Shown here: positions 7,182-59,000 of the stretch, piece by piece
Layout: the number at the start of each line of letters is the position of its first letter
How positions within the stretch are numbered: the stretch's first letter is position 1
Origin: Candidatus Buchananbacteria bacterium
GTDB taxonomy: Bacteria; Patescibacteriota; Patescibacteriia; 2-01-FULL-39-33; JBAYJR01
Length of the DNA: 64,000 nucleotides
Direction of reading: 5' to 3'
Assembly: GCA_041665005.1 (NCBI GenBank)
Contig: JBAYJR010000001.1
Location: forward strand, 4,727-68,726
Translations under genes and position numbers: made by a program
Notes under the pieces: generated by a model
What the model saw: the letters and a program-made list of their open reading frames with translations, nothing else
Told to the model about the DNA's origin: nothing
Databases searched by the model: none

Positions 7182-7478
7182 ATGTCAATGCACCAGCTAA
7201 AAGATTTATTGCAACGCTCCGTTAATCGAGCGGGAATTTCTAAAGAAGTGGAAGCTTCTTTGATTTGTGAAAAATTTTTGGAAGTGGTTAAAGAAACGTT
7301 TGGCGCGGCTTGGCAAAAAAATTGTAAGCCGCTTTATGTTAAAAATAATACGATTACGGTGGCTTGTTTAAACAACGTCGTGGCCCAAGAAATAAAATTA
7401 CGGGAAAAAGTTTTGCTGGCTAGTTTAGAAAAAATTTTAAAAAAGAAAAGCGTAGAAAGGATTAGGTTTGTAATTTAG
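7182..7478 (+). CDS. DUF721 (DciA-like) small protein
   Basis: About 98 aa with the typical W..NCKPLYVKNNTITVACLNNVVAQEIKL pattern of the DUF721 family. Confidence 0.5.
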   Translation: MSMHQLKDLLQRSVNRAGISKEVEASLICEKFLEVVKETFGAAWQKNCKPLYVKNNTITVACLNNVVAQEIKLREKVLLASLEKILKKKSVERIRFVI

Positions 7479-7493
7479 TAAAGAAGTCAAAAA

Positions 7494-7583
7494 GTGTAAA
7501 GTGTAAAGTGTAAAGTGTAAAGTGTAAAGTGTAAAGTGTAAAGTGTAAAGTGTAAAGTGTAAAGTGTAAAGTGTAAAGTGTAA
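7494..7583. repeat. Perfect heptanucleotide microsatellite (GTGTAAA)x about 12.7
   Basis: Read directly in the sequence, immediately upstream of the four-helix-bundle gene. Confidence 0.95.
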
Positions 7584-7588
7584 AAGTA

Positions 7589-7933
7589 ATGAGGATTGAA
7601 AAATTTGAAGATATTTATGCCTGGCAAAAGGGGAGACAACTAGTAATTGAAGTTTATCGGTTAACGGAGGATAGTCGGGATTATTCTTTTAGAGATCAAT
7701 TAAGGCGGGCCAGTATTTCTGTTATGAACAATATTGCCGAAGGCTTTGAACGAAATACTAATCAGGAATTTAAACATTTTTTGTACATTGCCAAAGGCTC
7801 GTGTGGTGAGGTAAGATCGATGTTGTATTTGACTTTAGAGTTTAATTATTTTACCACTGAGCAGTTTAATAAAGTGTATAGTTTGTCAGTCGAAATTTCT
7901 AGGTTACTGGCTGGTTTAATAAAATCCTTATAG
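7589..7933 (+). CDS. Four-helix-bundle protein of the 23S rRNA intervening-sequence protein family (PF05635/TIGR02436-like)
   Basis: Hallmark block FRDQLRRASISVMNNIAEGFERNTNQEFKHFLYIAKGSCGEVRSMLYL. Confidence 0.85.
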   Translation: MRIEKFEDIYAWQKGRQLVIEVYRLTEDSRDYSFRDQLRRASISVMNNIAEGFERNTNQEFKHFLYIAKGSCGEVRSMLYLTLEFNYFTTEQFNKVYSLSVEISRLLAGLIKSL

Positions 7934-7935: not shown

Positions 7936-8004
7936 TTTACGCTCTTTACTTTTTACTTTCTATTTTTAACTATTTAATTTTTAATTTTTAATTTTTAAAT
8001 TTAT
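7936..8004. repeat. AT-rich imperfect tandem repeat (TTTTACT / TTTTTAA units)
   Basis: tttttacgctctttactttttactttctatttttaactatttaatttttaatttttaatttttaaatttat; loosely inverse-like to the upstream GTGTAAA repeat. Confidence 0.7.
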
Positions 8005-8163
8005 ATGCGTGATCATGCTCGGGGCAAGTCAAACAAAAAAGTAGTGGGTTATCGAACGCCGTCTCGCTTTAAAGTGGTGGGTCCGCAGGCCAATCAACGC
8101 GAACAAGGACATTTTAGTCGGCCAACCGAAGCCCAACGGAGCCGCGCTTTTAAGGCTAAATAA
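8005..8163 (+). CDS. Possible small, highly basic protein (52 aa; MRDHARGKSNKKVVGYRTPSRFKVVGPQANQREQGHFSRPTEAQRSRAFKAK)
   Basis: ORF shorter than the track cutoff, translated by hand; start context AAATTTATATG matches many genes in this window; higher GC than the flanks; ends at a shared hairpin terminator at 8162-8195. Confidence 0.3.
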   Translation: MRDHARGKSNKKVVGYRTPSRFKVVGPQANQREQGHFSRPTEAQRSRAFKAK

Positions 8164-8177
8164 AAAAACCGCAAATT

Positions 8178-8855
8178 TTAAAATTTGCGGTTAGTAGCTA
8201 AAGGTTTTTCGGTTAGTTTTTTTCTGTCGCTGATAATTTTATCCAGACCAACACACTGGATATTTTTTTGTTTCAACCAAGCTAGTAGGTCCGGCAAATA
8301 ATTCAAAGTTTCTGTTTGGTCGTGCAGTAAAATTATTGACGGCCAAGTCAGCTCGGCTAACTGGCTAGTAACACAAGCCAGGGCTTTTTCTGGTTTTTGC
8401 CAGTCGCGACTATCTACTTGCCAAGTAACTGTTTGATAGCCTAAGCGGTCAAGGGTTAGTTGGTTAGCCCCGTTATACCGACCAGCGGGCGGCCGGAAAT
8501 AAATTGGTTTGGTGCCAAAATATTCCTGGCAGAGTTTTTCGGTGGTGGTAATTTGACTAACTAATTGTTGGTCCGTTAGTTTGGTAATATTGGGGTGATC
8601 AAAAGTGTGGTTGCCGATCAGACAATTATTAGCTAATGCTTGTTGCAAAGCCGAATAATACTTAGGTAATTGTTCGCCGATAACAAAAAAGGTTACGGAA
8701 CAAGAATTTGCGGCCAAAGTTGAAACAATGGCCTGGGTATTAATTGTTGGCGCGTCATCAATTGTTATGGCTACTTCCGTTGGCCAGGCTAATAAAGCCT
8801 GGTTTGTTAATAAACTTAACCCCAAATAGAGCCCCAGTAGTGTTTTTTTGGTCAT
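8178..8855 (-). CDS. Polysaccharide deacetylase (NodB homology domain), secreted
   Basis: N-terminal signal peptide; TIDDAP and HTFDHP motifs of the NodB/CE4 family. Confidence 0.8.
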   Translation of the reverse strand: MTKKTLLGLYLGLSLLTNQALLAWPTEVAITIDDAPTINTQAIVSTLAANSCSVTFFVIGEQLPKYYSALQQALANNCLIGNHTFDHPNITKLTDQQLVSQITTTEKLCQEYFGTKPIYFRPPAGRYNGANQLTLDRLGYQTVTWQVDSRDWQKPEKALACVTSQLAELTWPSIILLHDQTETLNYLPDLLAWLKQKNIQCVGLDKIISDRKKLTEKPLATNRKF

Positions 8856-8983
8856 GATTTATCCCTCCTAAATAGTATTGAGCAGTTTAGCATATTCGGG
8901 GGTTTTAGCAAGGGGATGGAGTTTAAATATTGGTAATAAATAATTAATTTTGGCTTAAATAAGCCAATATATAAGAATGACAC

Positions 8984-9012
8984 TTGACAAGATTTTGAAT
9001 ATGTGATATACT
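8984..9012 (+). promoter_or_regulatory. Sigma70-like promoter, TTGACA-17-TGaTATACT (extended -10)
   Basis: TTGACA at 8984-8989, 17 nt spacer, TGATATACT at 9004-9012; no CDS follows, only a structured region. Confidence 0.5.
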
Positions 9013-9018
9013 GTAATA

Positions 9019-9225
9019 TTACGATAAGAAATCGTAATTAGCAGTTAAAATTGTTTTTTACAAAATTTAATCAAAATTCTCTGAGGAGAGAGTTTTTATT
9101 GTCATTGCGAGGCTGTTTGCCGTGGCGATCTTTAGCTAGTCTAAAGATTTGTTTCACCCCGTTTAAACGTGGCTTGCAATGACAAAATAAAAAACTCTCC
9201 ATTAGGTGAGTTTTTTTGTTTAATG
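9019..9225 (+). ncRNA. Candidate small RNA: 5' hairpin, then a long near-perfect stem of about 24 bp enclosing about 75 nt with internal hairpins, then a U-tract
   Basis: Hairpin attacgat-aagaa-atcgtaat at 9019-9040; arms GGAGAGAGTTTTTATTGTCATTGC (9076-9099) and GCAATGACAAAATAAAAAACTCTCC (9176-9201); inner hairpin atctttag-ctagt-ctaaagat; T7 tract at 9212-9218. Confidence 0.35.
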
Positions 9226-9440
9226 CTAGCCGCAGTGTTGTTGAGAATCAAGTTCTAAAACAGGGAGAAAAACACATTATGTTATATTAGAGCCCGAAAG
9301 TTTTTCATCAGGTATCCTCAATAACACCGTGGCCAGCCAGATTCATTAAACTGACCATTGGCTAATCGGCGACCAGACCCCAACCTGCCTATTGGTTTCC
9401 ATTTAAAGGCTGGAAAAACTTTGTTTTAAGTTTAAAAACT

Positions 9441-9520
9441 TAAAATGATAGCAGCCTCCTTCCTCTGAGGAGACAAGAATTTTTTCTTGGCTTCTCAGAG
9501 AAGGGACAAAAATTTGTTCC
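9441..9520 (+). repeat. Conserved 5' leader element, copy 1 (homologous to 10824-10895)
   Basis: cagcctccttcctctgaggagacaagaattttttcttggcttctcagagaagggacaaaaa aligns with cagccccccttttccaaggagacaaaaattatcttttggctttttagaaaagggataag; the small hairpin changes in a compensatory way (cttc/gaag versus ctttt/aaaag). Confidence 0.6.
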
Positions 9521-9547
9521 AGATTGATTTTTAGAAAGGAGAAAACT

Positions 9548-9721
9548 ATGTTTTCTTTTTGCTATTACGCGGTGTTAATCACCGCAATGTTCGCTCTTTT
9601 TTTTACGGCAGTATATAAAGGCTTAGTAAAAAAAGATTATCTCAAGTTTGGTATCTGTATGGGGTTGATGAATTTTTTCGGCCTCATCATCATGGTATCA
9701 AAGTGGATGCTAAACATATAG
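9548..9721 (+). CDS. Small hydrophobic membrane peptide (57 aa, two predicted TM helices)
   Basis: RBS AAAGGAG 8 nt before ATG at 9548 (MFSFCYYAVLITAMFALFF ...); the track's TTG start at 9524 is less likely. Confidence 0.5.
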   Translation: MFSFCYYAVLITAMFALFFTAVYKGLVKKDYLKFGICMGLMNFFGLIIMVSKWMLNI

Positions 9722-9735
9722 GTTTCTAAAGGTAT

Positions 9736-9770
9736 CCGAGAGAATACTAAGGTATAAATACCATCTCTCG
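9736..9770 (+). repeat. Conserved two-tier hairpin, copy 1 (CCGAGAGAAT-loop-ATCTCTCG), terminator-like
   Basis: Outer stem CGAGAGA/TCTCTCG, inner stem GGTA/TACC; copies 2 and 3 have the same architecture; followed by a T-rich tract. Confidence 0.6.
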
Positions 9771-10325
9771 TCTTCTTGAGGGTTGCAGAATATTTTCTGA
9801 AATTCTCCAGAAGCTTCCGCAGCCGCGGTTTGCGGACTGAGGAGGTTATTACACTATACATTAAAATTGAGGTTAGTCACTTTTGTGACGCTGACTGACT
9901 GGCGCTTTGTTCTTGGTCTTGGACTAAGGGTTTAGCGTTTAACCAGTTGGTGACTAAACCACCAAGGTCTTTGACCTTAAGAGGTTTGGTCTCGGCCAAG
10001 AGTTTTCTTGGCCGCCTCTACTTAAGGGTTGCAGATGATTATTTGAAACTCTCAAGTAGTTTTTTCACCAAGTAGGGTGGAAAAATAAAAAATAGACCTT
10101 TAAAATTTTGCAACTAAATTTTTGCTTAGGAGGCCAATTTTGACTGACGCTTCATTGGTGTAAAACTAAATGATGTCTAGGTTAAATTGGATTTGCCCAT
10201 AATTATTTGGGTCAGGAAGTTAAGTTTTAGAATAATATTACTATAATATTTTCTAGTTTTACTTAACTACAATCTTAAGCAAAAGTTTAGTTGCAAAAAT
10301 TATTTACTGTGAAGGAGGTGGAGAG

Positions 10326-10785
10326 CTTGAAGCTTGAAACCAGACCAAAACATTTTTTGGATTTTTTGCTATGGCCACTACTGCGAATTTTTTGGGAGCC
10401 ATTATCCCGGAAGAATTCCCACTGGTGGCACTGGTTAGACTATTACGGCAATGTTTTTTTGCCGTTAGAAATAAATCCGGTGCCGTCAAAAGAAATTCGT
10501 TATAGTTTTTGGCAGCGGTTTTACCTGACCAACTTCGGTTGGCGCAAAGTCGTCGTAGTTAAGCCAAAAGGCTACACGGGTGGCTATCGCCTGGGCTTTA
10601 TTTCCCAGACAGAGAAAAAGAAGCAGGTCTGCGCGGTCATTTTGTCAGGTCAGGCCGCGGCCTTAATCGGTGGCAGTAAAGTTCAGTTCTTTGCCATTGA
10701 TTATTATGGTAGGGAGATTCCCTTAGAATTGGTAGAGGTTACTTATAACAAAGCAACACTGCCAAAAGAAATCATTCTAGTTTAG
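10326..10785 (+). CDS. Hypothetical protein (about 153 aa from TTG; the track's ATG at 10291 gives 164 aa)
   Basis: A strong RBS, GAAGGAGGTGG, lies inside the track ORF 6 nt before TTG at 10326, which suggests the real start is the TTG. Confidence 0.4.
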
Positions 10786-10823
10786 TTAATGGGCTGGAAA
10801 TATTATTTAAGTTAAAATTTAAG

Positions 10824-10895
10824 TAATATCAGCCCCCCTTTTCCAAGGAGACAAAAATTATCTTTTGGCTTTTTAGAAAAGGGATAAGTAACATC
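10824..10895 (+). repeat. Conserved 5' leader element, copy 2
   Basis: See copy 1 at 9441-9520. Confidence 0.6.
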
Positions 10896-10924
10896 ATCCC
10901 TAATTGCTCATTGAGAGGTGAAAA

Positions 10925-11176
10925 ATGAAAAAAGAAGTTAAATTTTCATTATGTAAGACTTACTCCTTTTTAGGAGTGGTCTGGATTGGGATTATATTTT
11001 TAATAATCTGGGTGTTCGGTTTTGGGGAAACCAGATTGCCAATCAGTGTATCAACTATTTCCGACGGTACAGTTTTTATTATCTGTACCCTCGGGGCCAT
11101 CTATTTGGCCACTCTTTTTTTAGCAACAGCTTTGTTTTATTGCTTTAATCGCCAATGGCCCTGGCGGAAAAGTTAG
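10925..11176 (+). CDS. Small membrane protein (83 aa, two to three TM helices)
   Basis: RBS GAGAGGTG before the ATG; strongly hydrophobic; followed by conserved hairpin copy 2. Confidence 0.5.
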   Translation: MKKEVKFSLCKTYSFLGVVWIGIIFLIIWVFGFGETRLPISVSTISDGTVFIICTLGAIYLATLFLATALFYCFNRQWPWRKS

Positions 11177-11193
11177 GGTAAACAAAAGAGCAT

Positions 11194-11227
11194 CCGAGAG
11201 AATGCCTAGGTAAAATACCATCTCTCG
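11194..11227 (+). repeat. Conserved two-tier hairpin, copy 2
   Basis: ccgagagaatgcctaggtaaaataccatctctcg followed by ttttt. Confidence 0.6.
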
Positions 11228-11324
11228 TTTTTCCAAATTTATTATTAAAAAATAGTAAATTTAGAAAAATTCAGCACCAAATGGTGATGAATAAGTTATG
11301 CTTAAAAAGGAGATGGTTAATATG

Positions 11325-11549
11325 TTCGGAGGCATTAATGTTTTCCAGTCTAACACCTGTAAGGGTGTTTTGGTAAAATTGGCATATAAGTTAGTTTACA
11401 GAGGGCCATTTGCTGCGATGCCAACTTACCACACCGGAGTGTTTGTTCTTCCGGATGGAATTAATTTGGAACATGTCAATCTTAATCAGCACATACCCCA
11501 CAAGCCATACCAAAAGGTTGAGCTTGTGGAAGTATTAAGAGCTGACTGA
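11325..11549 (+). CDS. Small soluble hypothetical protein (about 75 aa)
   Basis: RBS AAGGAG 9 nt before ATG at 11325 (MFGGINVF ...); the track start at 11298 is less likely; followed by conserved hairpin copy 3. Confidence 0.4.
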   Translation, partial: FGGINVFQSNTCKGVLVKLAYKLVYRGPFAAMPTYHTGVFVLPDGINLEHVNLNQHIPHKPYQKVELVEVLRAD

Positions 11550-11566
11550 TTAGGCTATTAGTGTAT

Positions 11567-11601
11567 CTGAGAGAATACTAAGGTATAAATACCATCTCTC
11601 G
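11567..11601 (+). repeat. Conserved two-tier hairpin, copy 3
   Basis: ctgagagaatactaaggtataaataccatctctcg; the closing base pair changes C-G to U-G. Confidence 0.6.
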
Positions 11602-11690
11602 TTTTCCTAAGTTTTGCAGAATTGAAAAATTTAGGAAACTGGTTAAAGAAATTTGACCAGTAGAAATAAAATTTAAAGGAGGCAAGTAGA

Positions 11691-12068
11691 ATGAATAAAG
11701 AGACGAAAGAGATGTGCAAAACGGTAGTTATTTTTTTGTTACTTGTGGGGGTTGTGGTAGGTATTTTCGACCATTATATGTCGAAAACTTCTCAAGCGAA
11801 AAAAGAAGCCGAACTAAAGGCCCGGTGGGAGCATCAATACAACACAGACATGCAGGCCCGCGACCGGATTAAACCAGTCGCGAATGGCTGGGAGTATAAT
11901 GGTAAAATTGAAAACGATGAACAGCTTTCGGTTGCTTGGTCTGAAATTAACAAACAATTACACCAATCCCGGTTTGGTCTCACTCCAGATGAGGATCCGT
12001 TTGAACTGCGGCTCATTGTCCGCGTTAATCCAGCGGACATCATCTCTCCGGCGCCAAGACGTAAGTAG
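11691..12068 (+). CDS. Hypothetical protein with an N-terminal TM helix
   Basis: RBS AAGGAGG; intrinsic terminator at 12087-12116 (ggggttat-ttaa-tataacccc plus ttctttct). Confidence 0.5.
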   Translation: MNKETKEMCKTVVIFLLLVGVVVGIFDHYMSKTSQAKKEAELKARWEHQYNTDMQARDRIKPVANGWEYNGKIENDEQLSVAWSEINKQLHQSRFGLTPDEDPFELRLIVRVNPADIISPAPRRK

Positions 12069-12303
12069 CTTTGCCGGCTAGTCTTAGGGGTTATTTAATA
12101 TAACCCCTTCTTTCTAAGGGCACCACGATTGGTGATGCTTTGAGAAAGGAAAATATTTAAATAAAATATTTATTTAAGCTAGAGGTTAATCATGCTACGC
12201 GGAAGATTATGATGAAAAACTAAAAAAATAATTTTAAACCGAGTTTTTAGAAATAAAAATACCACTTTAGTTAGTTGTTCACAAGTTAACTCTTGACAAA
12301 GAC

Positions 12304-12332
12304 TTGAGAATAGCTAACTGCGGTGATATACT
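12304..12332 (+). promoter_or_regulatory. Sigma70-like promoter, TTGAGA-17-TGaTATACT; same extended -10 as the promoter at 8984
   Basis: TTGAGA at 12304-12309, extended -10 at 12324-12332; an upstream TTGACA at 12293 would give a 28 nt spacer and is rejected. Confidence 0.45.
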
Positions 12333-12339
12333 ACTGCGG

Positions 12340-12477
12340 TAGAGAAGACGCGATATTATTGGTTGGCTCAAAATCAACCTCGTCACGCCTAGCGTGACAA
12401 AATCTCTCTCCTCGGTAGATTTCTGACTAACCAATTTGCCCTTCTTGAACACCCCCGCTTCGGCTGGGGTGTTTTTA
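12340..12477 (+). ncRNA. Candidate small RNA (about 135 nt) ending in a strong intrinsic terminator
   Basis: Long-range pairing attggttgg / ccaaccaat-like, internal perfect hairpin gtcacgc-cta-gcgtgac, terminator cacccccgc-ttcg-gctggggtg plus TTTTTATT (12450-12477); no ORF; does not match SRP, tmRNA or RNase P motifs that I can recognise. Confidence 0.35.
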
Positions 12478-12539
12478 TTGCGCTAAAATTGTTATAATAA
12501 AGTTGTTTAGACAGTAACTAATTATCTTTAGTAAAATTT

Positions 12540-12920
12540 ATGTCTTTAAAAAGTTTATTAGCTACCTTGTGGGCCTGTACTTTGTTGTTGTGGTTAACTT
12601 GGAGCCTGGTCTTATTTAAGATTGATCCGATAGAAGGCGGATTTTTGGCAATTAGTTTTTTTTATAGCAGTTTAGTTTTAGCTTTATTGGGAACTTTTGT
12701 CCTAGCGGGTTATTATTTGCGACGTTATCGTCAGCCCGAAGCATTGCCTTACCGATTAGTGGTAATTTCTTTACGTCAGGGCTGGTGGTTTAGCTTGGTA
12801 GTGTTAATTACTTTAATTTTGCAAAGTCAAAATTGGTTAACTTGGTGGAATGTCGCGTTATTAATTTTAGCCCTAGGAATTTTGGAATTTTTCTTTATTT
12901 CTTTCAAGGGAGAAAATTAA
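12540..12920 (+). CDS. Hypothetical integral membrane protein (four TM helices)
   Basis: Hydrophobic profile; -10 TATAAT at about 12492. Confidence 0.5.
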   Translation: MSLKSLLATLWACTLLLWLTWSLVLFKIDPIEGGFLAISFFYSSLVLALLGTFVLAGYYLRRYRQPEALPYRLVVISLRQGWWFSLVVLITLILQSQNWLTWWNVALLILALGILEFFFISFKGEN

Positions 12921-13000
12921 ATTTTTGGCTTAATTGCTAAACTTGCTTTTGTTGGCCAAAGATAGTATAATAATCCTATTATTTAGGATTATTTATTTTA

Positions 13001-14065
13001 ATGAAAGATCAATTAACTAAGTTATTAGCTTTAGCCAAACAGGAAATTTCTCAAGCCAGTGATTTGGCGGCGATAACACAATTAGAAATTAAATATTTAG
13101 GACGCGCTCAGGGCGAGTTAACGGCGATTTTGCGTCAATTAAAAACTGTGGCTGAAGCGGATCGGCCAATGGTGGGCCAATTAGCTAATCAGGTTAAACT
13201 AGAATTAGAGCAGGCTTTGAATACTAAAAAACAGGAATTAACCACAGGCGACTTGGCTGGCAATTTAGCTAAAGATTGGTTGGATGTTACTAGTCCGGGT
13301 TTAACTAAGGCAGTTGGTCATTTACACCCCATTACCCAGGCAATTAATGAAATCGTAGAAATTATGGGGCAGTTGGGTTTTTATCGCGTGCGTTATCCCG
13401 AAGTAGAGTGGGATTATTATGCTTTTTCCAGTTTAAATATGCCGGCTGATCATCCCGCTCGCGATGAATGGGAAACTTTTTTTATTGATAAAGAACCGGT
13501 TGGTGAGCTGGGCCAACGGTTATTAACACCCCATACTTCTTCGGGTCAGGTGCGAGAAATGGAAAAGGGTCGGTTGCCAATTAGAATGTTAAATGTTGCT
13601 AAATGCTATCGGCGTCAGATGGATGTTTCGCATTTAGTAATGTTTCATCAATTTGAAGGTTTGTTGGTTGATAAAAATGTCAGCATCGCGGAAATTAAGG
13701 GTACGTTTGATTTTTTTGTCAAAAAGTTTTTTGGTCCCGATCGGACGATTCGTTTACGACCGCATCATTTTCGGTTTACCGAACCAAGTTTTGAAATTGA
13801 TGTATCTTGTGGTTTATGTGGCGGGACTGGCAAATTAAGCCAAGGCGAGGATTGCCGGGTTTGTAAAATGGGTTGGTTGGAATTAGGCGGCGCCGGCATG
13901 GTGCATCCGAATGTTTTAAAAGCGGGGAAAATTGACCCCAAAGTTTATCAGGGCTTTGCTTTTGGTTGGGGAGTGGAACGAACTTATATGATGAAGGCGG
14001 GAGTAAAATTAGATGACATCCGTTTAATTTATCAAAACGATTTAAGATTTTTAGAACAATTTTAA
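13001..14065 (+). CDS. pheS: Phenylalanine--tRNA ligase alpha subunit, with an inserted Cys4 zinc-ribbon
   Basis: Class II motifs FRFTEPSFEID ... GWGVERT; insertion SCGLCGGTGKLSQGEDCRVCKMG where E. coli PheS has a short loop. Confidence 0.95.
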   Translation: MKDQLTKLLALAKQEISQASDLAAITQLEIKYLGRAQGELTAILRQLKTVAEADRPMVGQLANQVKLELEQALNTKKQELTTGDLAGNLAKDWLDVTSPGLTKAVGHLHPITQAINEIVEIMGQLGFYRVRYPEVEWDYYAFSSLNMPADHPARDEWETFFIDKEPVGELGQRLLTPHTSSGQVREMEKGRLPIRMLNVAKCYRRQMDVSHLVMFHQFEGLLVDKNVSIAEIKGTFDFFVKKFFGPDRTIRLRPHHFRFTEPSFEIDVSCGLCGGTGKLSQGEDCRVCKMGWLELGGAGMVHPNVLKAGKIDPKVYQGFAFGWGVERTYMMKAGVKLDDIRLIYQNDLRFLEQF

Positions 14066-16868: not shown

Positions 16869-18050
16869 ATGTCTCAGCTCAAAGATAATTGCCAAGAACT
16901 TACCAACCTGCTTTTGGAACTTAAAAACCTTAAGTCGGAGTTTGATTTGGCTTATCAAGAAGCTTTGGTTAGTCGTGACCTGACTAAACTCAGGGGGTTA
17001 AAGATGCAAATTGAGAGCGAGGTAAGTAAATTAGAGGTTAAGGCCGATCCTTTTAATGTCGCCTTTGAAGTAGATTTGAGAAAAAAATTAGCTGAACAAA
17101 GTAATTTAGATTTTGTTGGTGCTTTCCATGAGGGCTGGGCTTTGGTTAAAAATGGTGTAGAATATTTTTATATAGATCGGACTGGCAAGGAAATTGGTCC
17201 GGTCATGTTTAGTCCTGTTAGGTATGATTATGCTCAAAATTTTTCAAACGGTTTGGCTTGGGTTGTAATAAGTGGAAAATATTTTTATATTGATTACACA
17301 GGCAAAGAAATTAGCGTTGAAAGATACGACGATGCTACTGACTTTAAGGAAGGCTTGGCGGGTGTTAAAAGAGGCAAAGAATGGTTTTTTATCAATCCTG
17401 CTGGTCAAGCAATTAATTTAGAAAGATATGATGATGTCGGCAACTTTTCTGAAGGCTTGGCTCGAGTTATAAAAAAACACACCCAGTGGTTTTATATTAA
17501 TCACGCTGGTCAAGAAATTAGCGCCGAAAGATACGATGGTGCTGAGGATTTTCATGAAGGCTTAGCTCGAGTTAGAAAAGATAACAAGTGGTTCTATATT
17601 AATCGAGTTGGTTCAGAATTAGTCTTGAAGGACTATGATTTTGTTGGTGATTTTGTTGGTGGCTTGGCCGTGGCCCGAAAGGATAAGAAATATTTATACA
17701 TTGATCACTCGGGTAAGGAAATTATTTCAGCCAAGTATAACGCGGCCGGTGGTTTTGTAGAAGGCTTGGCTTGGGTTAGGGAAGGCGAAAAATATTATTT
17801 TATTGATCGTACTGGTCAAGAAATTAGTGCCGAAAGATATGATCGTGTTGGCAACTTTTCGGAAGGCTTGGCTTTGGTTAGGGAAGACAATAAATATTAT
17901 TTTATTGATCGTGCTGGTCGAGCAATCAATCCCGAAAAATATGATTTTGCCGAAAATTTTTCAGAAGGCTTGGCTCGGGTTACAAAAGATGGCAAGTGGT
18001 TTTATATTGACCATGCCGGCCGCAAAATATTTGAGGGGGAATTGCCTTAA
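16869..18050 (+). CDS. Paralog A1: conserved N-terminal CxELT..LKxLKxEFDL module plus about nine WG-like beta-propeller repeats
   Basis: Repeats of the form [KE][WY]F[YF]I[DN]xxGxEIxxERYDxAxxFSEGLARV resemble the KWG / WG-containing repeat (PF14903); the N-terminal 60 aa are shared with A2, A3 and the B family. Confidence 0.6.
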   Translation: MSQLKDNCQELTNLLLELKNLKSEFDLAYQEALVSRDLTKLRGLKMQIESEVSKLEVKADPFNVAFEVDLRKKLAEQSNLDFVGAFHEGWALVKNGVEYFYIDRTGKEIGPVMFSPVRYDYAQNFSNGLAWVVISGKYFYIDYTGKEISVERYDDATDFKEGLAGVKRGKEWFFINPAGQAINLERYDDVGNFSEGLARVIKKHTQWFYINHAGQEISAERYDGAEDFHEGLARVRKDNKWFYINRVGSELVLKDYDFVGDFVGGLAVARKDKKYLYIDHSGKEIISAKYNAAGGFVEGLAWVREGEKYYFIDRTGQEISAERYDRVGNFSEGLALVREDNKYYFIDRAGRAINPEKYDFAENFSEGLARVTKDGKWFYIDHAGRKIFEGELP

Positions 18051-18053
18051 TCT

Positions 18054-19220
18054 ATGTCTAATCCGGGATACAATTGCCAAGAACTTACTAACCTACTTTC
18101 GGCACTAAAAAACCTTAAGTCTGATTTTAATCTGGCTTATCAAGAAATCTTGGTTAGCCATGATTTAAGTCTAGCTAGAGCGCTTAAAATAAAAGTTAAA
18201 GAAAAGGTTAATAGTTTAGAGGCAAGAACTAATCCTTTTAATATCGCCTTTGAAGTAGATTTGAGAAAAAACTTAGCTGAACAAAATAATTTAGATTTTG
18301 TTGGTGCTTTTCATGGGGGCTGGGCTAAGGTTAAAAAAGATGGAAAATATTTTTTTATTGATAAAACCGGCAAGGAGCTTAGTTCAGAAAGATATGAGAG
18401 TGTTGGTAATTTTTCGGAAGGCTTGGCTTGGGTAAGAGATTCCAGAGGGTCTATTTATATTGATCGGACGGGCCAAGAAATTAGTTTAAAAAGATATAAT
18501 GTAGCGGGTGATTTTCATGAAGGTTTAGCTAGGGTTTTTGATACTGGGGACCATTTTTTTATTAATCGTGCCGGTCAAGAAATTAGTTCCGAAAGGTATG
18601 ATTTAGCTAATAATTTTTCGGAAGGCTTTGCGGGCGTTAAACAAGCTGGAAAAATGTTTTTTGTTGACCATGCAGGTAAAAAGCTTAATTTTAAGGAAGA
18701 TTATAAAGAGGTTTGTGATTTTTCTGAAGGTTTAGCCCGAGTTTCTAAAGATAAGGTGATGTTTTTTATTGACTATACAGGTCAAAGAGGCGTCACAACG
18801 ACTTATGATAACGCTAGTAGTTTTGTTGGTGGCTTGGCTTGGGTTGAAAAAGATGGAGAAGTTTTTTATATTAATTATGCTGGTGAGAAAGTTATTTCAG
18901 TAAAATATGATTTTGCTGATGATTTTCACGAAGGTTTGGCCCGGGTAGAAAAAGATGGTAAGTGGTCTTTTATTGATCGCACCGGCCAAGAGATTAATGC
19001 TGAAAAATATGATTTTGCTTCTAATTTTTCAGAAGGTTTAGTCCGGGTTGTAAGAAATAAGGAGTGGTTTTATGTTGACCGTGCTGGTCAAGAAATTAGT
19101 GCCGAAAGATATGCCTTTGCCGAAAATTTTTCTGAAGGTTTGGCACGAGTCCAAGAACAAGAATATGGAGAATATTCTTATATCGACCATACTGGTCGTA
19201 AGATATTTGATGAGAAATAA
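18054..19220 (+). CDS. Paralog A2: same architecture as A1
   Basis: MSNPGYNCQELTNLLSALKNLKSDFNLAYQE ... followed by WG-like repeats; 3 nt gap from A1. Confidence 0.6.
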   Translation: MSNPGYNCQELTNLLSALKNLKSDFNLAYQEILVSHDLSLARALKIKVKEKVNSLEARTNPFNIAFEVDLRKNLAEQNNLDFVGAFHGGWAKVKKDGKYFFIDKTGKELSSERYESVGNFSEGLAWVRDSRGSIYIDRTGQEISLKRYNVAGDFHEGLARVFDTGDHFFINRAGQEISSERYDLANNFSEGFAGVKQAGKMFFVDHAGKKLNFKEDYKEVCDFSEGLARVSKDKVMFFIDYTGQRGVTTTYDNASSFVGGLAWVEKDGEVFYINYAGEKVISVKYDFADDFHEGLARVEKDGKWSFIDRTGQEINAEKYDFASNFSEGLVRVVRNKEWFYVDRAGQEISAERYAFAENFSEGLARVQEQEYGEYSYIDHTGRKIFDEK

Positions 19221-19229
19221 CTTTTATCT

Positions 19230-20390
19230 ATGCCCAATCCCAAACCCAACTGTCAGGAACTTACTAACTTACTTTTGGCACTAAAAAATCTTAAGCCTGA
19301 GTTTGATTTGGCCTATCAAGAAGCCTTAATTAGCCGCGATTTGACTAAACTTAGGGGATTAAAAATACAAATTGAGAGTAAGGTAAAAGAATTGGAGGCC
19401 AAGCTTGACCCTTATAACATTGAACTACGAAAGAAATTAGCCGAAGAAAATGACTTTGATTTTGTTGGTAATTTTCATGACGGCTGGGCAAAAGTCAAAC
19501 AGTGTGGAGAATGGTTTTATGTTGATTGCTCTGGGCAACGAATTAACTCGAAAGAATACGACATTGCCTGTGATTTTTCAGAAGGCTTGGCTTCGGTTTG
19601 TAAAGATCATCAATGGTTTTATATTGATTGTGCCGGCCAAGCAATTAATTTCGAAAAATATGATGTTGCCGATAATTTTTCGGAAGGCTTAGCTTGGGTT
19701 AGAAAACAGAATACCTTTTTTTATATTAATAAGATTGGTCAGGCAATTAATACTGAAACTTATAGCAACGTTAGCCGTTTTCGGGGAGGCTTGGCTCATG
19801 TGAAAAAAACTGGAAAAAATTTGCTTATTGAAGATTTGCTTATTGATAGAACCGGTAAAGAGATAAGTTTAGGAAAATATGATATGGTTGGTGATTTTTC
19901 GGAAGGCTTGGTAAGAGTTTATTGTAAAGATCAGGGATGGTTTTATGTTGACCGCATGGGTCAAGAAATTAGTGCCGAAAGATATGATGGTGCGGAGGAT
20001 TTTCATGAAGGCTTGGCTCAAGTTAAAAGACAGGGGCAGTGGTTTTACATTAACCAGTCTGGGCGAGCAGTTAATCAAGAAACATATGATTTTGCTTCTA
20101 ATTTTTCGGAAGGTCTGACCCGGGTTATGAAAAATAGAAAAATGTTCTATATTGATCACGAGGGTCAAACAGTTAATCAAGAAACATATGATGAGGCTAG
20201 AGATTTCTCGGAAGGCTTGGCTCCAGTTAGAAAAGATGATAAGTGGTTTTATATTGATCGCGCTTGCCAAGCAATTAATTCTGAAAAATATAATATTGCC
20301 TTAAATTTTTGTGGAGGATTGGCATTAGTTACAAAAGCCGGAGAACGGTTTTATATTGACCACACTGGTCGCAAAATATTTAAGGATTAA
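19230..20390 (+). CDS. Paralog A3: same architecture as A1
   Basis: MPNPKPNCQELTNLLLALKNLKPEFDLAYQE ... followed by WG-like repeats; 9 nt gap from A2. Confidence 0.6.
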   Translation: MPNPKPNCQELTNLLLALKNLKPEFDLAYQEALISRDLTKLRGLKIQIESKVKELEAKLDPYNIELRKKLAEENDFDFVGNFHDGWAKVKQCGEWFYVDCSGQRINSKEYDIACDFSEGLASVCKDHQWFYIDCAGQAINFEKYDVADNFSEGLAWVRKQNTFFYINKIGQAINTETYSNVSRFRGGLAHVKKTGKNLLIEDLLIDRTGKEISLGKYDMVGDFSEGLVRVYCKDQGWFYVDRMGQEISAERYDGAEDFHEGLAQVKRQGQWFYINQSGRAVNQETYDFASNFSEGLTRVMKNRKMFYIDHEGQTVNQETYDEARDFSEGLAPVRKDDKWFYIDRACQAINSEKYNIALNFCGGLALVTKAGERFYIDHTGRKIFKD

Positions 20391-43408: not shown

Positions 43409-43520
43409 AATATTTTAACTATTAGCCGCTGGTAAATTAAAAACCAGCGGTTTTTTTATGTACCATTGACAAAAGTCAGGATTGTTGCTATTATTGGTTG
43501 ATAAAAAGGAGGATTTTTCT

Positions 43521-43763
43521 ATGAAATGTCCATGCTGTAACAAAGGGGAATTGGTCAAGGGCAGCACAACCAGTGCTTGTTCGGCTGATTTCGTTAATTG
43601 TTCGGTTTGTGGGTTTAGTGTCCACAAATCATTTTTGGCTGATCCAATTTCGGCAGCCAAAAGAGTCCAGGAGTATAAAGATTCCTTGACCAAAAAAATC
43701 GCTGCGGGCCAGGTGGCCCAGCAGAGGCTGGAAAGTATTGATACTTTTCAGATTGAAGAATAG
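43521..43763 (+). CDS. Small zinc-ribbon protein
   Basis: RBS AAGGAGG before ATG at 43521 (MKCPCCNKGE ... CSVCG); terminator at 43775-43805. Confidence 0.5.
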   Translation: MKCPCCNKGELVKGSTTSACSADFVNCSVCGFSVHKSFLADPISAAKRVQEYKDSLTKKIAAGQVAQQRLESIDTFQIEE

Positions 43764-43846
43764 AATCAAAAAATAGCCCAAGTTGAAAGATACTTGGGTT
43801 TTTTATTTGGTTATATTCTCTAAAATAATCCTTTATTTTGGGGGTC

Positions 43847-55207: not shown

Positions 55208-55567
55208 CCGGATTAATTAATTTTGTCACTATTACTCCAGAAGTGATTACTTCTCAGCAGAACATTCTCCTTATTATTTCTTGTTCTTTTGGCAGCAAAA
55301 GAACCAAAACTGCTGGGTGACAAATTCACTAGTTGCTACTTAGGATATGTAGTGAATTAATCCTTGACGTTCAATTGTCACCCAGACCCAGGGTGGTTCT
55401 GCCCGCGTTAAATATAAATAATAATAAAAACACCCAATAGAACTTAGATTGGTTGTCGGACTAAGGATGGTTATCTGGGGTTTAGGTCGGTTGTAAAAAG
55501 TATGGGTTTTTGTTAAGATAGACAAAGCTTAACTGCTAAACATCAGTCAAATTTTTATAGTATTTAT

Positions 55568-56635
55568 ATGCCCCAACTTTGCCCCGAACTCACTACCAAA
55601 CTAGCCCCCCTCAAACAACTCAAACAAGAGTTTGATTTGGAATTAACCAAAGCTCAGAGTTTAAGTCCTAATAAACCAGAGGATTTAGTTTTGGTTAGGG
55701 AGGCTAAGATTAAATTAGAACAAGCCTCTCAAGCTTTTCAAGATCTCCAAAACGAACTCTGGTTAGAAACCCCCGAACTAACCCCAGAAAACCTTAAAGC
55801 CCAGTATGAAGCCCAAGTAGACATTCTCCGTAAAAACAACCTCCTAAAAACCCTCTCCACTGGCGAATTAGGTATTGAAGCAATTGATAAGCGGGAATAC
55901 CCCATACCAACTCTAGAACAAATAGAGTTTTTTATCTTAAAAAATAAAGAATTTTTGAAAACCAAAATTCCACAAGGCTTTGTTAAACTAATTATTGTTC
56001 CCTTTGGCTTGCCAATTAGTTCCCTAATAGAGGCTTATAGCAAGGCCTTAATCGAATGCCACAAACAAGGCTGTTTATATGATGCCCAATTCCTACATTT
56101 TGAGTTTAATGCAAAACCTATCCATGATTATACCGGATGGGTCAAAGCCGAAGCCACAGGAGAGCTAGTATATTTCCCCAAAGAATACTCAAAAACTACT
56201 CATCAAGGTAAAACTAAGCAAGAACTTTTACCTACTCAAGCTTGGCAAATTCTAATGCTTGAAGACTCGCCCGATATTCCAGATAAAGGCAAGGGCAAAA
56301 CCGTTAATGGTCGTCAGCAACCAGAAGCTAACCAATCACCCAATGACTATCTTAAACAACTCCAAACCAACCTTCAGTATAAAGGCGAACAAGGCTTAAC
56401 CCCAGAATCCTGGCTAGTTTATGGTTTAGATTATTTAAAAGAAGGACGCCAAATAATTGATAGCCGGCAAGATTACTATAGAGGCTGTATTATGGTTAAT
56501 AGTTATTTTAAAGAAACTGGTTATGTGCCGACAGCCTACCCTGGCCATGGCGATATGTCGGTCACTTTGGATCGGAAGAGCCCGAACGATTCCTGGACTA
56601 TCGGTGCCACCCGCTTTGCAGTAAGTATTCTTTAA
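55568..56635 (+). CDS. Paralog B1: conserved N-terminal MPQLCPELTTKL ... EFDLELTK module plus an unknown C-terminal domain of about 300 aa
   Basis: N-terminus homologous to A1-A3; C-terminal domain shared with B3 and B4 at high nucleotide identity. Confidence 0.6.
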   Translation: MPQLCPELTTKLAPLKQLKQEFDLELTKAQSLSPNKPEDLVLVREAKIKLEQASQAFQDLQNELWLETPELTPENLKAQYEAQVDILRKNNLLKTLSTGELGIEAIDKREYPIPTLEQIEFFILKNKEFLKTKIPQGFVKLIIVPFGLPISSLIEAYSKALIECHKQGCLYDAQFLHFEFNAKPIHDYTGWVKAEATGELVYFPKEYSKTTHQGKTKQELLPTQAWQILMLEDSPDIPDKGKGKTVNGRQQPEANQSPNDYLKQLQTNLQYKGEQGLTPESWLVYGLDYLKEGRQIIDSRQDYYRGCIMVNSYFKETGYVPTAYPGHGDMSVTLDRKSPNDSWTIGATRFAVSIL

Positions 56636-56645
56636 ATAAATTTGT

Positions 56646-57833
56646 ATGCCCCAACTTTGCCCCGAACTTACAACCAAGCTAGCCTCCCTCAAACAACTCA
56701 AAGCAGAGTTTGATTTGGAATTAACCAAAATTAAAAATTTAGATTCTAAAAAATCAGATGATTTAGTTTTGGTTAGGCAAATAAAAAATCAATTGGAGTC
56801 GACCTTGAAAAGTATCCAAGAAATTATGGTAACAGTTGATTGGAAAGATTTTTATTACAGAGAACTAACTTCTGTAGAAAACAAAAATAATTATCATGAA
56901 GAGCAGGTTCTTGAAGGAAACGGTAATGGAGTGTTAGCTTTGCAGGTTTTACATGGTGGACTACGGTTGGTTTCTGGTGGCGGCGATGGTACTATTAAGC
57001 TTTGGGAGTGGGAGCTAAATCTTCCTAGTCGGTATAAAGAGAAGCAAACTTTTTCGGAGCGTTACTCAGTTTCAGCCCTGCAGGTTTTACCTGATGGTAA
57101 TATTGTTTCGGCCGCTAGTAATGGGACTATGAAGATTTGGGATCGGAATATTTATGGTTTGGTTGAAACTTCGCAGATTATTAGAGAACATATGCAGGGT
57201 TATGTACAAACACTTAAGGTTTTTCCTAGTGGTCGAATTGTTGCCGGGATTAGTAATGGTGGTATTGAAATTTGGGATAAAGACAGTCAGGGTCAATATT
57301 ATCAGGCCCAGGGTATTGCCGGGTCGGGAGGTCATGTGCTGACCTTGCAAACTTTACCGGACGGTCAGATCTTTTTTAGCAATGGTAAAATCAATATTTT
57401 GCATCAGGACAGTTGGAATCAGTATGATAGATTACAAGAAATTGATAACCAAGATCTCTTCACTCTGGTTTTGCAAGTCTTGCCCGATGGTCGGATCGTT
57501 TCGGGCACTCTGCAAGGCGACATTCAAATATGGGATCAAGATGCCAAAGGTAAATACCAATTAACTCAATCTTTTTTTGGTCACAGAAATTCTGTACGAG
57601 ATTTGCAAGTCTTGCCCGATGGTCGGATTGTTTCTGGTGGCGGGGATTACACGGTTAAAATTTGGGAACAAGACCAAGCGGGTATTTATCGTAACATTGA
57701 AACACTTTCTAGTGCTAAGGTTACCAATGACCACGGATCGGTCTATACTTTGCAGGTTTTGGCTGATGGTCGGATTTTTGCGGGTTATGGTAATAATAAT
57801 GTTATAATCTGGGATGGTGATAAGGTAAAATAA
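56646..57833 (+). CDS. Paralog B2: same N-terminal module fused to a WD40-type beta-propeller
   Basis: Repeats GDGTIKLWEW, SNGTMKIWD, GGIEIWDKD, GDIQIWDQD, GGDYTVKIWEQD and LQVLPDGRIVSG. Confidence 0.65.
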   Translation: MPQLCPELTTKLASLKQLKAEFDLELTKIKNLDSKKSDDLVLVRQIKNQLESTLKSIQEIMVTVDWKDFYYRELTSVENKNNYHEEQVLEGNGNGVLALQVLHGGLRLVSGGGDGTIKLWEWELNLPSRYKEKQTFSERYSVSALQVLPDGNIVSAASNGTMKIWDRNIYGLVETSQIIREHMQGYVQTLKVFPSGRIVAGISNGGIEIWDKDSQGQYYQAQGIAGSGGHVLTLQTLPDGQIFFSNGKINILHQDSWNQYDRLQEIDNQDLFTLVLQVLPDGRIVSGTLQGDIQIWDQDAKGKYQLTQSFFGHRNSVRDLQVLPDGRIVSGGGDYTVKIWEQDQAGIYRNIETLSSAKVTNDHGSVYTLQVLADGRIFAGYGNNNVIIWDGDKVK

Positions 57834-57843
57834 ATAAATTTAT

Positions 57844-58926
57844 ATGCCCAGACTTTGTCCCAAACTTACAACTAAACTAGAATCCACCAAAGCGCTTAAA
57901 AAAGAGTTTGATTTGGAATTTACTAAAATTAGAAATCTAAACTCTAAAAAATCCGAGGATCTTATTTTCATCAGAGACATTAAATCCAACCTGAACCAAA
58001 CCCTCCAAGACCTCCAAAACCAACTCTGGCTAGAAACCCCCGAATTAACCCGAGAAAACCTTAAAGCCCAATATGAATTTCAGAAAAACCTTCTTATTAA
58101 GGCTGGCTTAGCAAAACCTCTCTCCACTGGTGAATTAGGTATTGAAGCAATCGATAACAAAGAATACCCCATACCCACCCTAGAACAGATTGAAGAAATG
58201 ATGCTAGAAAAACGTAAGTTATTAGAAACCAAAATCCCACAAGGCTTTGTTAAGTTAGTTCTTGTTCCTTTCGGCTTGCCAATTAGCTCCCTAATAGAGG
58301 CTTATGACAAGGCCCTAACGGAATATCATCAGCGAGGTGAGCTCCTAGACACCCAAAATAAACCTTTGGGGCTTGATAAAGAGATTGGTAAAAAGTTTAT
58401 TTATGATAATGGTGCTAAATATTATATCCAAGCCGAAGCCACGGGAGATTTAGTATATTTCCCTCAAGAATACTCCAAAATTACTCATCAAGGTAAAACC
58501 AAAAAACAACTCCTAGCCACCCAAGCCTGGCAAGTCCTACTACTTGAAGACTTGCCCGACCTTCCAGATCAAGGTCAAGGTAAAATCATAGCTAAACGCC
58601 AGCAACCAGAAGCTAACCAAATACCCAAGAAGTATCTTAGACAACTCCAGACCGACCCTCAGTATAAAGGTGAACAAGGTTTAACTCCAGAATCCTGGCT
58701 AGTTTATGGCTTAAGTCACTTAGTGCAAAGTAAACAAATGATTGAGAGCGGGGAAAGAGAATATGGTTATAGGGGTTGTTATTTACTTGATAGTTGTTTT
58801 AAAAAATCTGGTGACGTGCTGTACGCCTATTTATATCGTAGCGATGCGCGGGTCAGCTTGGTTCGGAGTGCTCCGGATAGTCACAATACCTACGGTGCCG
58901 GTCGGTTTTCGGTGAGTATTTCTTGA
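57844..58926 (+). CDS. Paralog B3: same architecture as B1
   Basis: MPRLCPKLTTKL ... then ETPELTRENLKAQYE ... GFVKLVLVPFGLPISSLIEAY. Confidence 0.6.
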   Translation: MPRLCPKLTTKLESTKALKKEFDLEFTKIRNLNSKKSEDLIFIRDIKSNLNQTLQDLQNQLWLETPELTRENLKAQYEFQKNLLIKAGLAKPLSTGELGIEAIDNKEYPIPTLEQIEEMMLEKRKLLETKIPQGFVKLVLVPFGLPISSLIEAYDKALTEYHQRGELLDTQNKPLGLDKEIGKKFIYDNGAKYYIQAEATGDLVYFPQEYSKITHQGKTKKQLLATQAWQVLLLEDLPDLPDQGQGKIIAKRQQPEANQIPKKYLRQLQTDPQYKGEQGLTPESWLVYGLSHLVQSKQMIESGEREYGYRGCYLLDSCFKKSGDVLYAYLYRSDARVSLVRSAPDSHNTYGAGRFSVSIS

Positions 58927-58959
58927 TCTTTGTTTTTAGTTAATAATTAGTTCCAGCTA

Positions 58960-58989
58960 TTGACAATAATTAATTTGCTTGCTATAATA
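58960..58989 (+). promoter_or_regulatory. Promoter TTGACA-18-TATAAT
   Basis: Consensus hexamers; followed immediately by a hairpin plus T-tract in the 5' UTR. Confidence 0.55.
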
Positions 58990-59000
58990 TTTTCACTTTA

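Follow-up and report, generated by a model that had tools for sequence, protein, structure and literature searches.

A candidate small RNA locus of a Candidatus Buchananbacteria genome is probably an inverted pair of an Ssn-related hairpin repeat

In a metagenome-assembled genome of Candidatus Buchananbacteria (Patescibacteria/candidate phyla radiation, CPR; GC 38%), we analysed a stretch of 64,000 nucleotides, hereafter the window. A preliminary description had proposed a promoter-driven small RNA (sRNA) at positions 8984-9225 of this stretch, a region that we call candidate 1. Our results point to a DNA element: in the core of the region, 9088-9199, an Ssn-related hairpin repeat is probably present as an inverted pair that is partly decayed and encloses no gene. 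The pair occupies a variable interval of the genome, and the promoter-terminator cassette around it is probably transcribed. Candidate 1 is probably an ordinary copy of this repeat and not a purpose-built RNA gene, and a dedicated sRNA function is unsupported. From the earlier proposal, the promoter and the terminator bracketing about 200 nt are retained, while the structure between them is that of an inverted pair of a dispersed DNA repeat.

The long stem of candidate 1 and the hairpin inside it consist of two head-to-head copies of a 30-45-nt unit, TGTCATTGCGAG-(variable)-CG(W)RGCAATCT, together forming a pair of 84 nt. One inverted pair of a dispersed repeat therefore accounts for the long stem, for the enclosed hairpins and for a 27-codon reading frame that overlaps them (Table 1). 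In the window the 5' copy reads GCGAT, with one G.T pair, and its closest single relative is found at locus L115, 12284-12331; the 3' copy is noticeably decayed. The perfect inner hairpin noticed in the preliminary description is present, and its geometry is repeated in other inverted pairs, e.g. GCAATCTCATGAGATTGC at L164. A sequence-only model of the unit, R1, made from 29 copies that all lie on viral contigs, matched the window at the two arms only, on the plus strand for the 5' copy and on the minus strand for the 3' copy, and returned zero matches in 1.01 Mb of 100 unrelated loci. The arm sequence had been used to find these copies, with the 5' GTC and the AATC block in the selection pattern, and therefore only the remaining blocks count as independent evidence. 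For these blocks, GAG plus CGTGGCGATCT at the right distance, we estimate a joint chance probability of the order of 1e-6.

The repeat is widely distributed. A scan of viral contigs with the two stem arms yielded 12 loci, 7 of which share further blocks with candidate 1, the GAG after TTGTCATTGC and the inner CG(W)RGCAATCT; at those loci the repeat arm is multi-copy, with 14 and 19 cores in 12-14 kb. A second scan, of viral or prophage contigs, gave at least 120 stretches that carry the unit. Among the 125 loci listed, GC ranges from 34 to 68% and the number of cores from 1 to 20 per locus (up to 19-20 cores in 13.7 kb), and 30 convergent inverted pairs were counted, 64-207 nt in length and mostly 64-113 nt. 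Exact protein look-up connected unit-bearing contigs to Dehalococcoidia, Mucilaginibacter, Flavobacterium arcticum, Rickettsia hoogstraalii and Smithella, the hosts of the family belonging to at least five phyla. In some genomes the copies are both multi-copy and intergenic. The scattering of the stem as a miniature inverted-repeat transposable element (MITE) or as a repetitive extragenic palindromic (REP)-type repeat, which the preliminary description had named as evidence against an RNA gene, is thus observed for the family in other genomes, while the present genome shows one pair in 64 kb. Searches of plasmid DNA with the unit core and with a typical pair returned nothing meaningful, and literature searches by raw sequence and by the translated-repeat peptides of the GCGAG unit found nothing. 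Viral-contig scans for a Shine-Dalgarno (SD)-plus-unit pattern, for candidate 2 (a second putative RNA of the window, described below) and for the 16-mer of a 3' hairpin of neighbouring gene cassettes gave chance matches or none.

The family is related to the targets of a recently described nuclease. SsnA is a 94-aa single-domain GIY-YIG nuclease that binds and cuts the Neisseria NTS hairpin repeat, in single-stranded DNA (ssDNA) only (Chenal et al. 2025, Nat Commun, PMC11893778). The NTS, CGTCATTCCCGCGMAVGCGGGAATCYRG, contains dRS3; the three bases 5' of its palindrome govern cleavage and the C just after the palindrome governs binding, and 'Ssn-related motifs' (SRM) border the SsnA homologues found across bacteria (PMC11893778). 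On some contigs our unit adjoins TGTCATTCCCGC...GCGGGAATCC units, and it was the related string GTCATTCCCGC that led us to this work. The frame of the unit, GTC-ATT...AAT-C, is the same as that of NTS. TGTC-ATTGC occurs at 9100-9108 and, on the minus strand, at 9185-9177, and GTC stands in every aligned copy, GTC being part of the selection pattern; the unit keeps both the GTC tag and the 3' C that are relevant to cleavage and binding by SsnA. The pairing of ATTGC with GCAAT is supported by covariation among relatives of the unit, which carry ATTCT...AGAAT-C (L270) or ATTCCCGC...GCGGGAAT-C (L203, L269). The L269 records, NZ_CP119140.1 and NZ_CP119142.1 in PLSDB, are 2.17-Mb N. gonorrhoeae entries filed as plasmids and evidently chromosomes. 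The published SRM pattern, HGTCWYN(0-2)YYVSBRHN(0-5)WNVSBRGN(0-2)RNCYNB, an operational search string derived from 29 genomes (PMC11893778), matched 36 times in 1.08 Mb of unit-bearing contigs, mostly at canonical NTS-like sites, versus twice in 0.88 Mb of controls, a 14-fold enrichment (3.3 vs 0.23 per 100 kb).

A Buchananbacteria relative from the same sample, L263, carries a small single-domain GIY-YIG gene in its DciA-pheS interval, flanked by units at 9155-9207 (+) and 9522-9575 (-), each with E ~1e-8, and has four units in 21 kb. The encoded protein, 87 aa as called and 97 aa from an upstream ATG, shares 46.6% identity (tblastn E = 2e-19) with an N. gonorrhoeae protein of 94 aa encoded within a canonical NTS array, and 66.7% with a Planktothrix GIY-YIG protein. 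The Planktothrix gene is itself flanked by TGTCATTCTGAG...AGAATCTC units (TGTCATTCTGAGTGAAACGAAGAATCTC), which represent a doubly compensatory stem variant of one family copy, with ATTCT/AGAAT replacing ATTGC/GCAAT. L265, L267 and L085, relatives without a GIY-YIG gene in the DciA-pheS interval, have no units. L233 provides a second case in which a unit adjoins a GIY-YIG gene; a related-locus query with the L233 protein alone returned the self-match only. Pfam assigned the L233 and L263 proteins to PF01541 (GIY-YIG) only, and the nearest solved structure is a UPF0213 protein (E = 0.007). Taken together, these sequence comparisons show that the repeat family is associated with SsnA homologues, an association seen in L263 and L233 and not in the window. 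In L263, a second inverted pair of units, at 7204-7262 (+) and 7591-7630 (-), flanks dciA itself rather than a nuclease gene, an arrangement that recalls the NTS-gene-NTS organisation reported for Neisseria. A link of the repeat to the 23S-rRNA-IVP (four-helix-bundle) gene near candidate 1 was considered and ruled out, as there are no IVP genes on the first repeat-rich loci and no units beside the IVP gene of the window.

The fold of candidate 1 behaves as that of a DNA repeat. The RNA of 9014-9225 folds at -62.9 kcal/mol (z = -5.5, 0/200 shuffles as good), and the antisense RNA reaches z = -6.5. Similarly, the ssDNA fold of the inverted repeat has -24.9 kcal/mol on the plus strand and -24.1 kcal/mol on the minus strand (z = -6.8 and -6.6). 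This strand symmetry argues against selection at the RNA level. When the whole window was compared with Rfam, an approach suggested by the preliminary description, no family reached its gathering score at candidate 1, the only match being a tRNA at 51753. In E-value mode, nothing relevant was obtained on 8800-10400 and 12250-12560, where the best match was a terminator-driven Phe_leader (26-28 bits vs a gathering score of 55, E = 0.04-0.1), and no family matched the typical copies on seven repeat-rich loci. An orthologue of the whole of candidate 1 was not recovered by scans and look-ups that were unable to reveal one. Indeed, the contig of the nearest relative ends 140 nt upstream of a 167-aa gene, short of the place of candidate 1, and in more distant relatives the entire insertion is absent. 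A genome-contig scan with the adjacent deacetylase gave, among the matches listed, only relatives of at most 37% identity, and no homologue was found at E <= 1e-30 among 5.8 billion proteins; the 152-aa neighbour has two distant homologues only, both in unrelated contexts. A metagenome-contig scan with a candidate-2 pattern returned 23 chance matches and missed the source contig and L084, which both contain the pattern, and its negatives are uninformative.

Table 1. Features of candidate 1 and coordinates of candidate 2 in the window.
Feature	Position	Strand	Sequence or extent	Score or remark
Sigma70-type promoter	8984-9012	+	TTGACA (8984-8989), 17 nt, TATACT (9007-9012); extended -10 TG at 9004-9005	11/12
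5'-terminal hairpin	9018-9038	+	ATTACGAT-AAGAA-ATCGTAAT, 8 bp	-5.7 kcal/mol
Hairpin a.b	9073-9096	+	AAAAUUCUCU-GAGG-AGAGAGUUUU	-9.2 kcal/mol
Whole inverted repeat (long stem)	9088-9199	either	arms 9088-9111 / 9173-9199; ~24 bp with bulges and one G.U; ~61 nt enclosed	
27-codon frame	9099-9182	+	TTG (9099) to TGA (9180-9182), MSLRGCLPWRSLASLKICFTPFKRGLQ	SD-like GAGGAG 9083-9088, 10 nt before the start
5' unit copy	9100-9131	+	TGTCATTGCGAG-GCTGTTTGC-CGTGGCGATCT; family consensus end GCAATCT	R1 match 9098-9131, E = 5.8e-5
Central perfect hairpin	9128-9148	+	ATCTTTAG-CTAGT-CTAAAGAT	junction of the ...AATCT ends of both units
3' unit copy, degenerate	9141-9187	-	TTTTGTCATTGCAAG-CCACG...-AAACAAATCT	R1 match 9169-9187, E = 6.8e-3
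Intrinsic-terminator-like hairpin	9189-9217	+	AAAAAACUCUCC-AUUA-GGUGAGU7	-10.1 kcal/mol
Candidate 2	12304-12478	+	promoter TTGAGA-17-TATACT 12304-12332; ~140-nt RNA 12339-12478; terminator 12453-12476	fold z = -6.0

We also asked whether the repeat pair is likely to be transcribed. The good sigma70-like promoter with an extended -10 that had been described at candidate 1 is indeed there, as the top-scoring site within 8000-13500, with a predicted transcription start at ~9019-9021 and followed by the 5' hairpin, likewise described before. The window has about five times as many sites of at least 11/12 as expected (9 vs 1.7), and those other than the promoter of candidate 1 lie upstream of genes; judging by its sequence, the promoter is probably real. 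At the other end, a core hairpin CTCTCC-ATTA-GGTGAG (9195-9210) precedes a T7 tract at 9211-9217, which corresponds to the U7 tract reported earlier. This terminator is bidirectional in form, with an A-run upstream, and shares its 5' arm with the outer 3' arm of the long stem; it is missing from our terminator scan because of one U.U mismatch in its stem, and it is plausibly functional. Elsewhere in the window, tiny Cys-containing open reading frames (ORFs) at 43466-43800 and 58960-59228 are driven by promoters very close to the consensus (11/12 and 12/12, each with TG) and have a strong terminator each, and the second of these cassettes has a TTG start and a terminator-like hairpin in its leader. 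Both exemplify a one-gene promoter-to-terminator layout typical of this genome. Since several strong promoters of the window bracket such small ORF-plus-terminator cassettes, a short transcript at candidate 1 is plausible. With a credible promoter and a credible terminator, we judge the chance that an RNA of ~200 nt is made to be better than even, and such a transcript may well exist.

The predicted structure of this RNA differs in part from that first described. The arms of the ~24-bp stem are present, yet the ground state predicted by folding lacks the full stem, whose outer 10 bp compete with the hairpins 9073-9096 and 9189-9218: positions 9087-9097 pair either with 9073-9082 or with 9189-9199, and positions 9189-9200 either with 9087-9097 or with 9205-9217. 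The full stem has -42.8 kcal/mol, of which its 13-bp core alone provides -33.3 kcal/mol, whereas the two hairpins combined with the 13-bp inner stem reach about -52.6 kcal/mol. With this state ~10 kcal/mol better, the minimum-energy fold has the terminator formed and only the 13-bp stem left. Hairpin a.b contains an SD-like sequence, GAGGAGAGAG, at 9083-9092, and its 3' arm doubles as the outer 5' arm of the long stem. The statement that the region has no ORF is not strictly true, because of the 27-codon frame, which is nothing but the translated repeat pair. This frame is probably spurious, since its start and its stop both fall within the repeat consensus (T-TTG-TCATTGC ... GCAA-TGA-CAA), and its 'SLRG' is the translation of TCATTGCGAGG, common to every repeat unit. 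A type I toxin was ruled out, the 27-aa peptide not being hydrophobic.

From these data we propose the following scheme, the first steps of which are established in Neisseria and would apply here as well. Units would flank a single-domain GIY-YIG nuclease gene in a unit-gene-unit arrangement, would be bound and cut in ssDNA by their own nuclease, and would also persist as MITE-like solo pairs. The window has one partly decayed pair between dciA and pheS, the interval that holds a full unit-GIY-YIG-unit module in a related genome. Here the pair lies between a probable promoter and a terminator-like hairpin, and would likely be transcribed into an RNA of ~200 nt with a stem of 13 bp, or 24 bp at most. 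We infer that an Ssn-type nuclease recognises the repeat in this organism, that the region is transcribed and that it serves no dedicated RNA function.

Several observations weigh against this scheme. The 3' unit is degenerate, the 64-kb window has a single unit pair, and it contains no GIY-YIG gene, so that Ssn nuclease activity in this host is only inferred. The 5-bp hairpin of a single unit is thermodynamically weak, no more stable than shuffled sequences. In addition, the published SRM pattern has 0 matches in the window, and the unit fails it because G-C stands where Y-Y is required after GTCAT(T). As the pattern is an operational string from 29 genomes, this misfit weakens the designation 'SRM as published' and not the idea that the unit works like one. 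On the RNA side, the promoter is among the nine best of the window and the layout of promoter, 5' hairpin and terminator matches that of real expression cassettes; an expressed and possibly functional RNA may therefore come from candidate 1. A 10-nt segment of candidate 1 is also complementary to a conserved unpaired loop of candidate 2. Three rival explanations together hold about a quarter of the probability in our estimate.

The first rival, unlikely in our view and still the best placed of the three, is a genuine independent sRNA of ~200 nt that co-opted the repeat pair as a stabilising stem, with GAGGAGAGAG as a target of, or a sponge for, candidate 2. Candidate 2 is itself of interest. 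Its predicted fold is a long irregular hairpin in which the CU-rich, anti-SD-like loop AAAAUCUCUCUCCUC (12399-12413) stays unpaired, and it is 72% identical in L083/L084, in which PheS is 71% identical. One of its hairpins has entirely different arms in these relatives, with fully compensatory changes (GTCACGC/GCGTGAC vs GCCTCA/TGAGGC), and AAATCTCTCTCCTC, located in the unpaired loop, is invariant. Candidate 2 has no match in Rfam. It looks like a real conserved sRNA, and it is a better sRNA candidate than candidate 1. Apart from the strong promoter, the plausible terminator and the 5'-end hairpin of candidate 1, the case for an sRNA is based on its possible pairing with candidate 2: GAGGAGAGAG is perfectly complementary over 10 nt to 12404-12413 (CUCUCUCCUC), on the side of candidate 2 that is unpaired and invariant in L083, and neither sequence has another exact copy in the window (128 kb of strand). 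We estimate that ~0.02-0.05 matches of this kind would arise by chance between two RNAs of these sizes. However, the complementarity involves low-complexity GA/CU, SD-like sequence, and the minimum-energy fold places GAGGAGAGAG in a paired part of hairpin a.b. When the duplex was left unrestricted, its energy exceeded that of simulated sequences by a small margin only, 5-11 of 300 being as good; these duplexes were unrealistic full-length ones, and their energies were not relied on. The pairing of the two candidates is only suggestive. Both candidates also have GTGATATACT in common: the extended -10 recurs exactly at 12323-12332, as had been noticed, and the window has no further exact copy. 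The sharing is weak evidence for the co-regulation suggested earlier, since TGnTATACT differs little from a generic extended -10, and TG with TATACT is found in a third promoter too (59230-59259). Finally, no orthologue of candidate 1 was found, in searches unable to find one, and its structural signal is strand-symmetric and accounted for by the DNA repeat.

In the second rival, which we consider improbable, candidate 1 would act in cis as the 5' leader or attenuator of the small-membrane-protein genes that follow it (57 aa, 9549-9722 onward), with the long stem as an anti-terminator that competes with hairpin a.b plus the terminator and so decides on read-through. The mutually exclusive arms fit such a switch, there is no plus-strand promoter site of at least 9/12 between 9013 and 10078, and a related CTCTGAGGAGA motif appears again in the 5' hairpin of the 57-aa gene. 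However, the state with the terminator is favoured by ~10 kcal/mol, no sensor element binding a ligand or a protein is evident, and no riboswitch, T-box or leader family was detected beyond the weak Phe_leader matches. Furthermore, the extended -10-like TGTTATATT (9280-9288) could serve the 57-aa gene alone, and the supposed anti-terminator is the repeat pair itself. The third and least probable rival is a small protein-coding cassette or its wreck, with an 80-nt leader, the SD GAGGAG, TTG at 9099, 27 codons, TGA at 9180 and the terminator 7 nt on, from which either a micro-protein is made or whose former small gene was destroyed by insertion of the repeat pair: its layout resembles the real cassettes at 58960-59228 (TTG start, leader hairpin, terminator) and 43466-43800 and its 10-nt SD-to-start spacing is acceptable, but the repeat consensus supplies the start, the stop and every codon between, the chance of a stop in frame is 1/3, the peptide has no hydrophobic segment, and the minus strand has an equally long 'ORF' (9071-9202), as is typical of translated palindromes.

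A more elaborate possibility combines the repeat with a function, and we give it a slim chance, below that of the attenuator, in its two versions taken jointly. In one, the Ssn-type pair would have been co-opted as a stable ~200-nt RNA whose GAGGAGAGAG is a target or decoy of candidate 2 (12339-12478), resulting in a two-RNA circuit controlling the small-membrane-protein cassettes that lie between them. In the DNA-level version, transcription would expose the repeat as ssDNA to the Ssn nuclease, and this border of a variable gene cluster would be a hotspot of programmed recombination.

The surroundings of candidate 1 are variable. On one side of the region is a divergent gene for a polysaccharide deacetylase (8178-8855, minus strand), and on the other are several small genes encoding proteins of 57 aa (9549-9722), 152 aa (10327-10785), 83 aa, 83 aa and 125 aa, none of which belongs to a Pfam family; candidate 2, a gene for a 126-aa membrane protein and pheS/pheT follow. 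The PheS of the window is 100% identical to a protein listed at NCBI under Candidatus Buchananbacteria. Identical DNA is present in ENA ERZ27249449, and 968 nt of it in one Logan contig. In relatives whose PheS is 63-65% identical, the order is UvrD-like helicase, DciA, (Memo/AMMECR1), a 131-139-aa gene and pheS. Because this order differs, the ~5.5 kb holding candidate 1 represent a lineage-specific fill of a variable dciA-pheS interval, which marks an insertion hotspot in Buchananbacteria. A 23S-rRNA-IVP family gene, located after dciA in the window (7589-7933), stands between pheS and pheT in L263 (11074-11454), and appears to move around inside the dciA-pheS neighbourhood. Directly upstream of the window's copy, the heptamer AAAGTGT forms a perfect tandem array of ~16 copies (7477-7591). 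The UvrD-like helicase contains an intein (Hint/Intein_splicing) in L263 and L267, and none in the window copy.

The small genes between candidates 1 and 2 are repeated cassettes. Their 5' leader contains a long conserved hairpin, seen in two copies with compensatory changes (9436-9509, 10814-10887); a conserved 3' hairpin, GTATCCGAGAGAATACTAAGGTATAAATACCATCTCTCG, directly follows three stop codons (9729-9791, 11187-11240, 11560-11622), and a third type of hairpin has a UGCAGAA loop (9771-9816, 10017-10062, 11603-11638). The same intergenic stretch has another long stem, an inverted repeat of 29 nt (10103-10131 / 10273-10301, 90% complementary) that encloses 141 nt with a TATAAT-type promoter-like site, just 5' of the 152-aa gene. 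Further away, 16869-20390 hold three tandem paralogous genes made of 102-nt (34-aa) repeats, and a block at ~55.5-64 kb (55500-64000) is made up of segment duplications, in which repeats of 44-66 nt end in ...TGGGA.

Comparison with known systems helps to place the repeat. Like NTS/dRS3 and SRM, it is built on a short hairpin whose frame is GTC-ATT...AAT-C, with GTC before the palindrome and C behind it; its units are inverted around a small GIY-YIG gene (in L263, with a protein 47% identical to the Neisseria orthologue), and canonical NTS-type units co-occur on unit-bearing contigs. By contrast with NTS/SRM, its host is a member of the Patescibacteria, a word absent from the main text of PMC11893778, its stem is ATTGC/GCAAT instead of ATTCCCGCG/CGCGGGAAT, and it fails the published degenerate pattern. 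Its loop has a variable insert of 4 to >30 nt that is often itself a hairpin, its own hairpin is weak, and the window has a single decayed pair and no nuclease gene in 64 kb. The organisation of unit, doublet and enzyme also resembles that of another system. REP/REPIN elements with their RAYT transposases (Bertels and Rainey; Nunvar et al.) are short palindromic units with a conserved 5' tag, present singly or as inverted doublets forming long hairpins, dispersed between genes and linked to a single-copy enzyme gene flanked by units. Here, however, a GIY-YIG nuclease takes the place of the IS200/IS605-type Y1 transposase, (T/C)GTC stands where REP elements have the tag GTAG, and the unit sequence, unlike theirs, is conserved across phyla. 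MITEs with expression signals, such as the Correia elements of Neisseria, are gene-less intergenic inverted repeats that yield a long RNA stem when transcribed and can adjoin promoters or terminators. The candidate 1 pair is likewise gene-less, intergenic and inverted, but neither a target-site duplication nor a transposase-type terminal repeat was identified at candidate 1, and its promoter and terminator lie outside the repeat. With sRNA genes and attenuators, candidate 1 shares a strong promoter, a 5' hairpin, a Rho-independent-type terminator, alternative pairings and a possible seed/target complementarity with a neighbouring sRNA. Unlike them, it has no family match and no orthologues were found, and its strand-symmetric structure is accounted for by the DNA repeat.

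A strong fold z-score and a promoter are thus insufficient to call an sRNA, as a palindromic DNA repeat produces such a signal from either strand; the antisense fold, together with dispersal in other genomes, is a quick way to tell a DNA repeat from an sRNA. As far as can be read from sequence, the candidate 1 repeat adds a sequence variant, and a phylum, to a kind of element described only recently. With our results, the Ssn nuclease/hairpin-repeat system would come to include Patescibacteria, many phage or prophage contigs and a class of sequences overlooked by the published pattern, GTCATTGCGAG...GCAATC with a variable insert in the loop. The gene-less inverted pairs look like MITE derivatives of the unit-nuclease-unit module, in agreement with the idea that Ssn modules act like mobile elements (PMC11893778).

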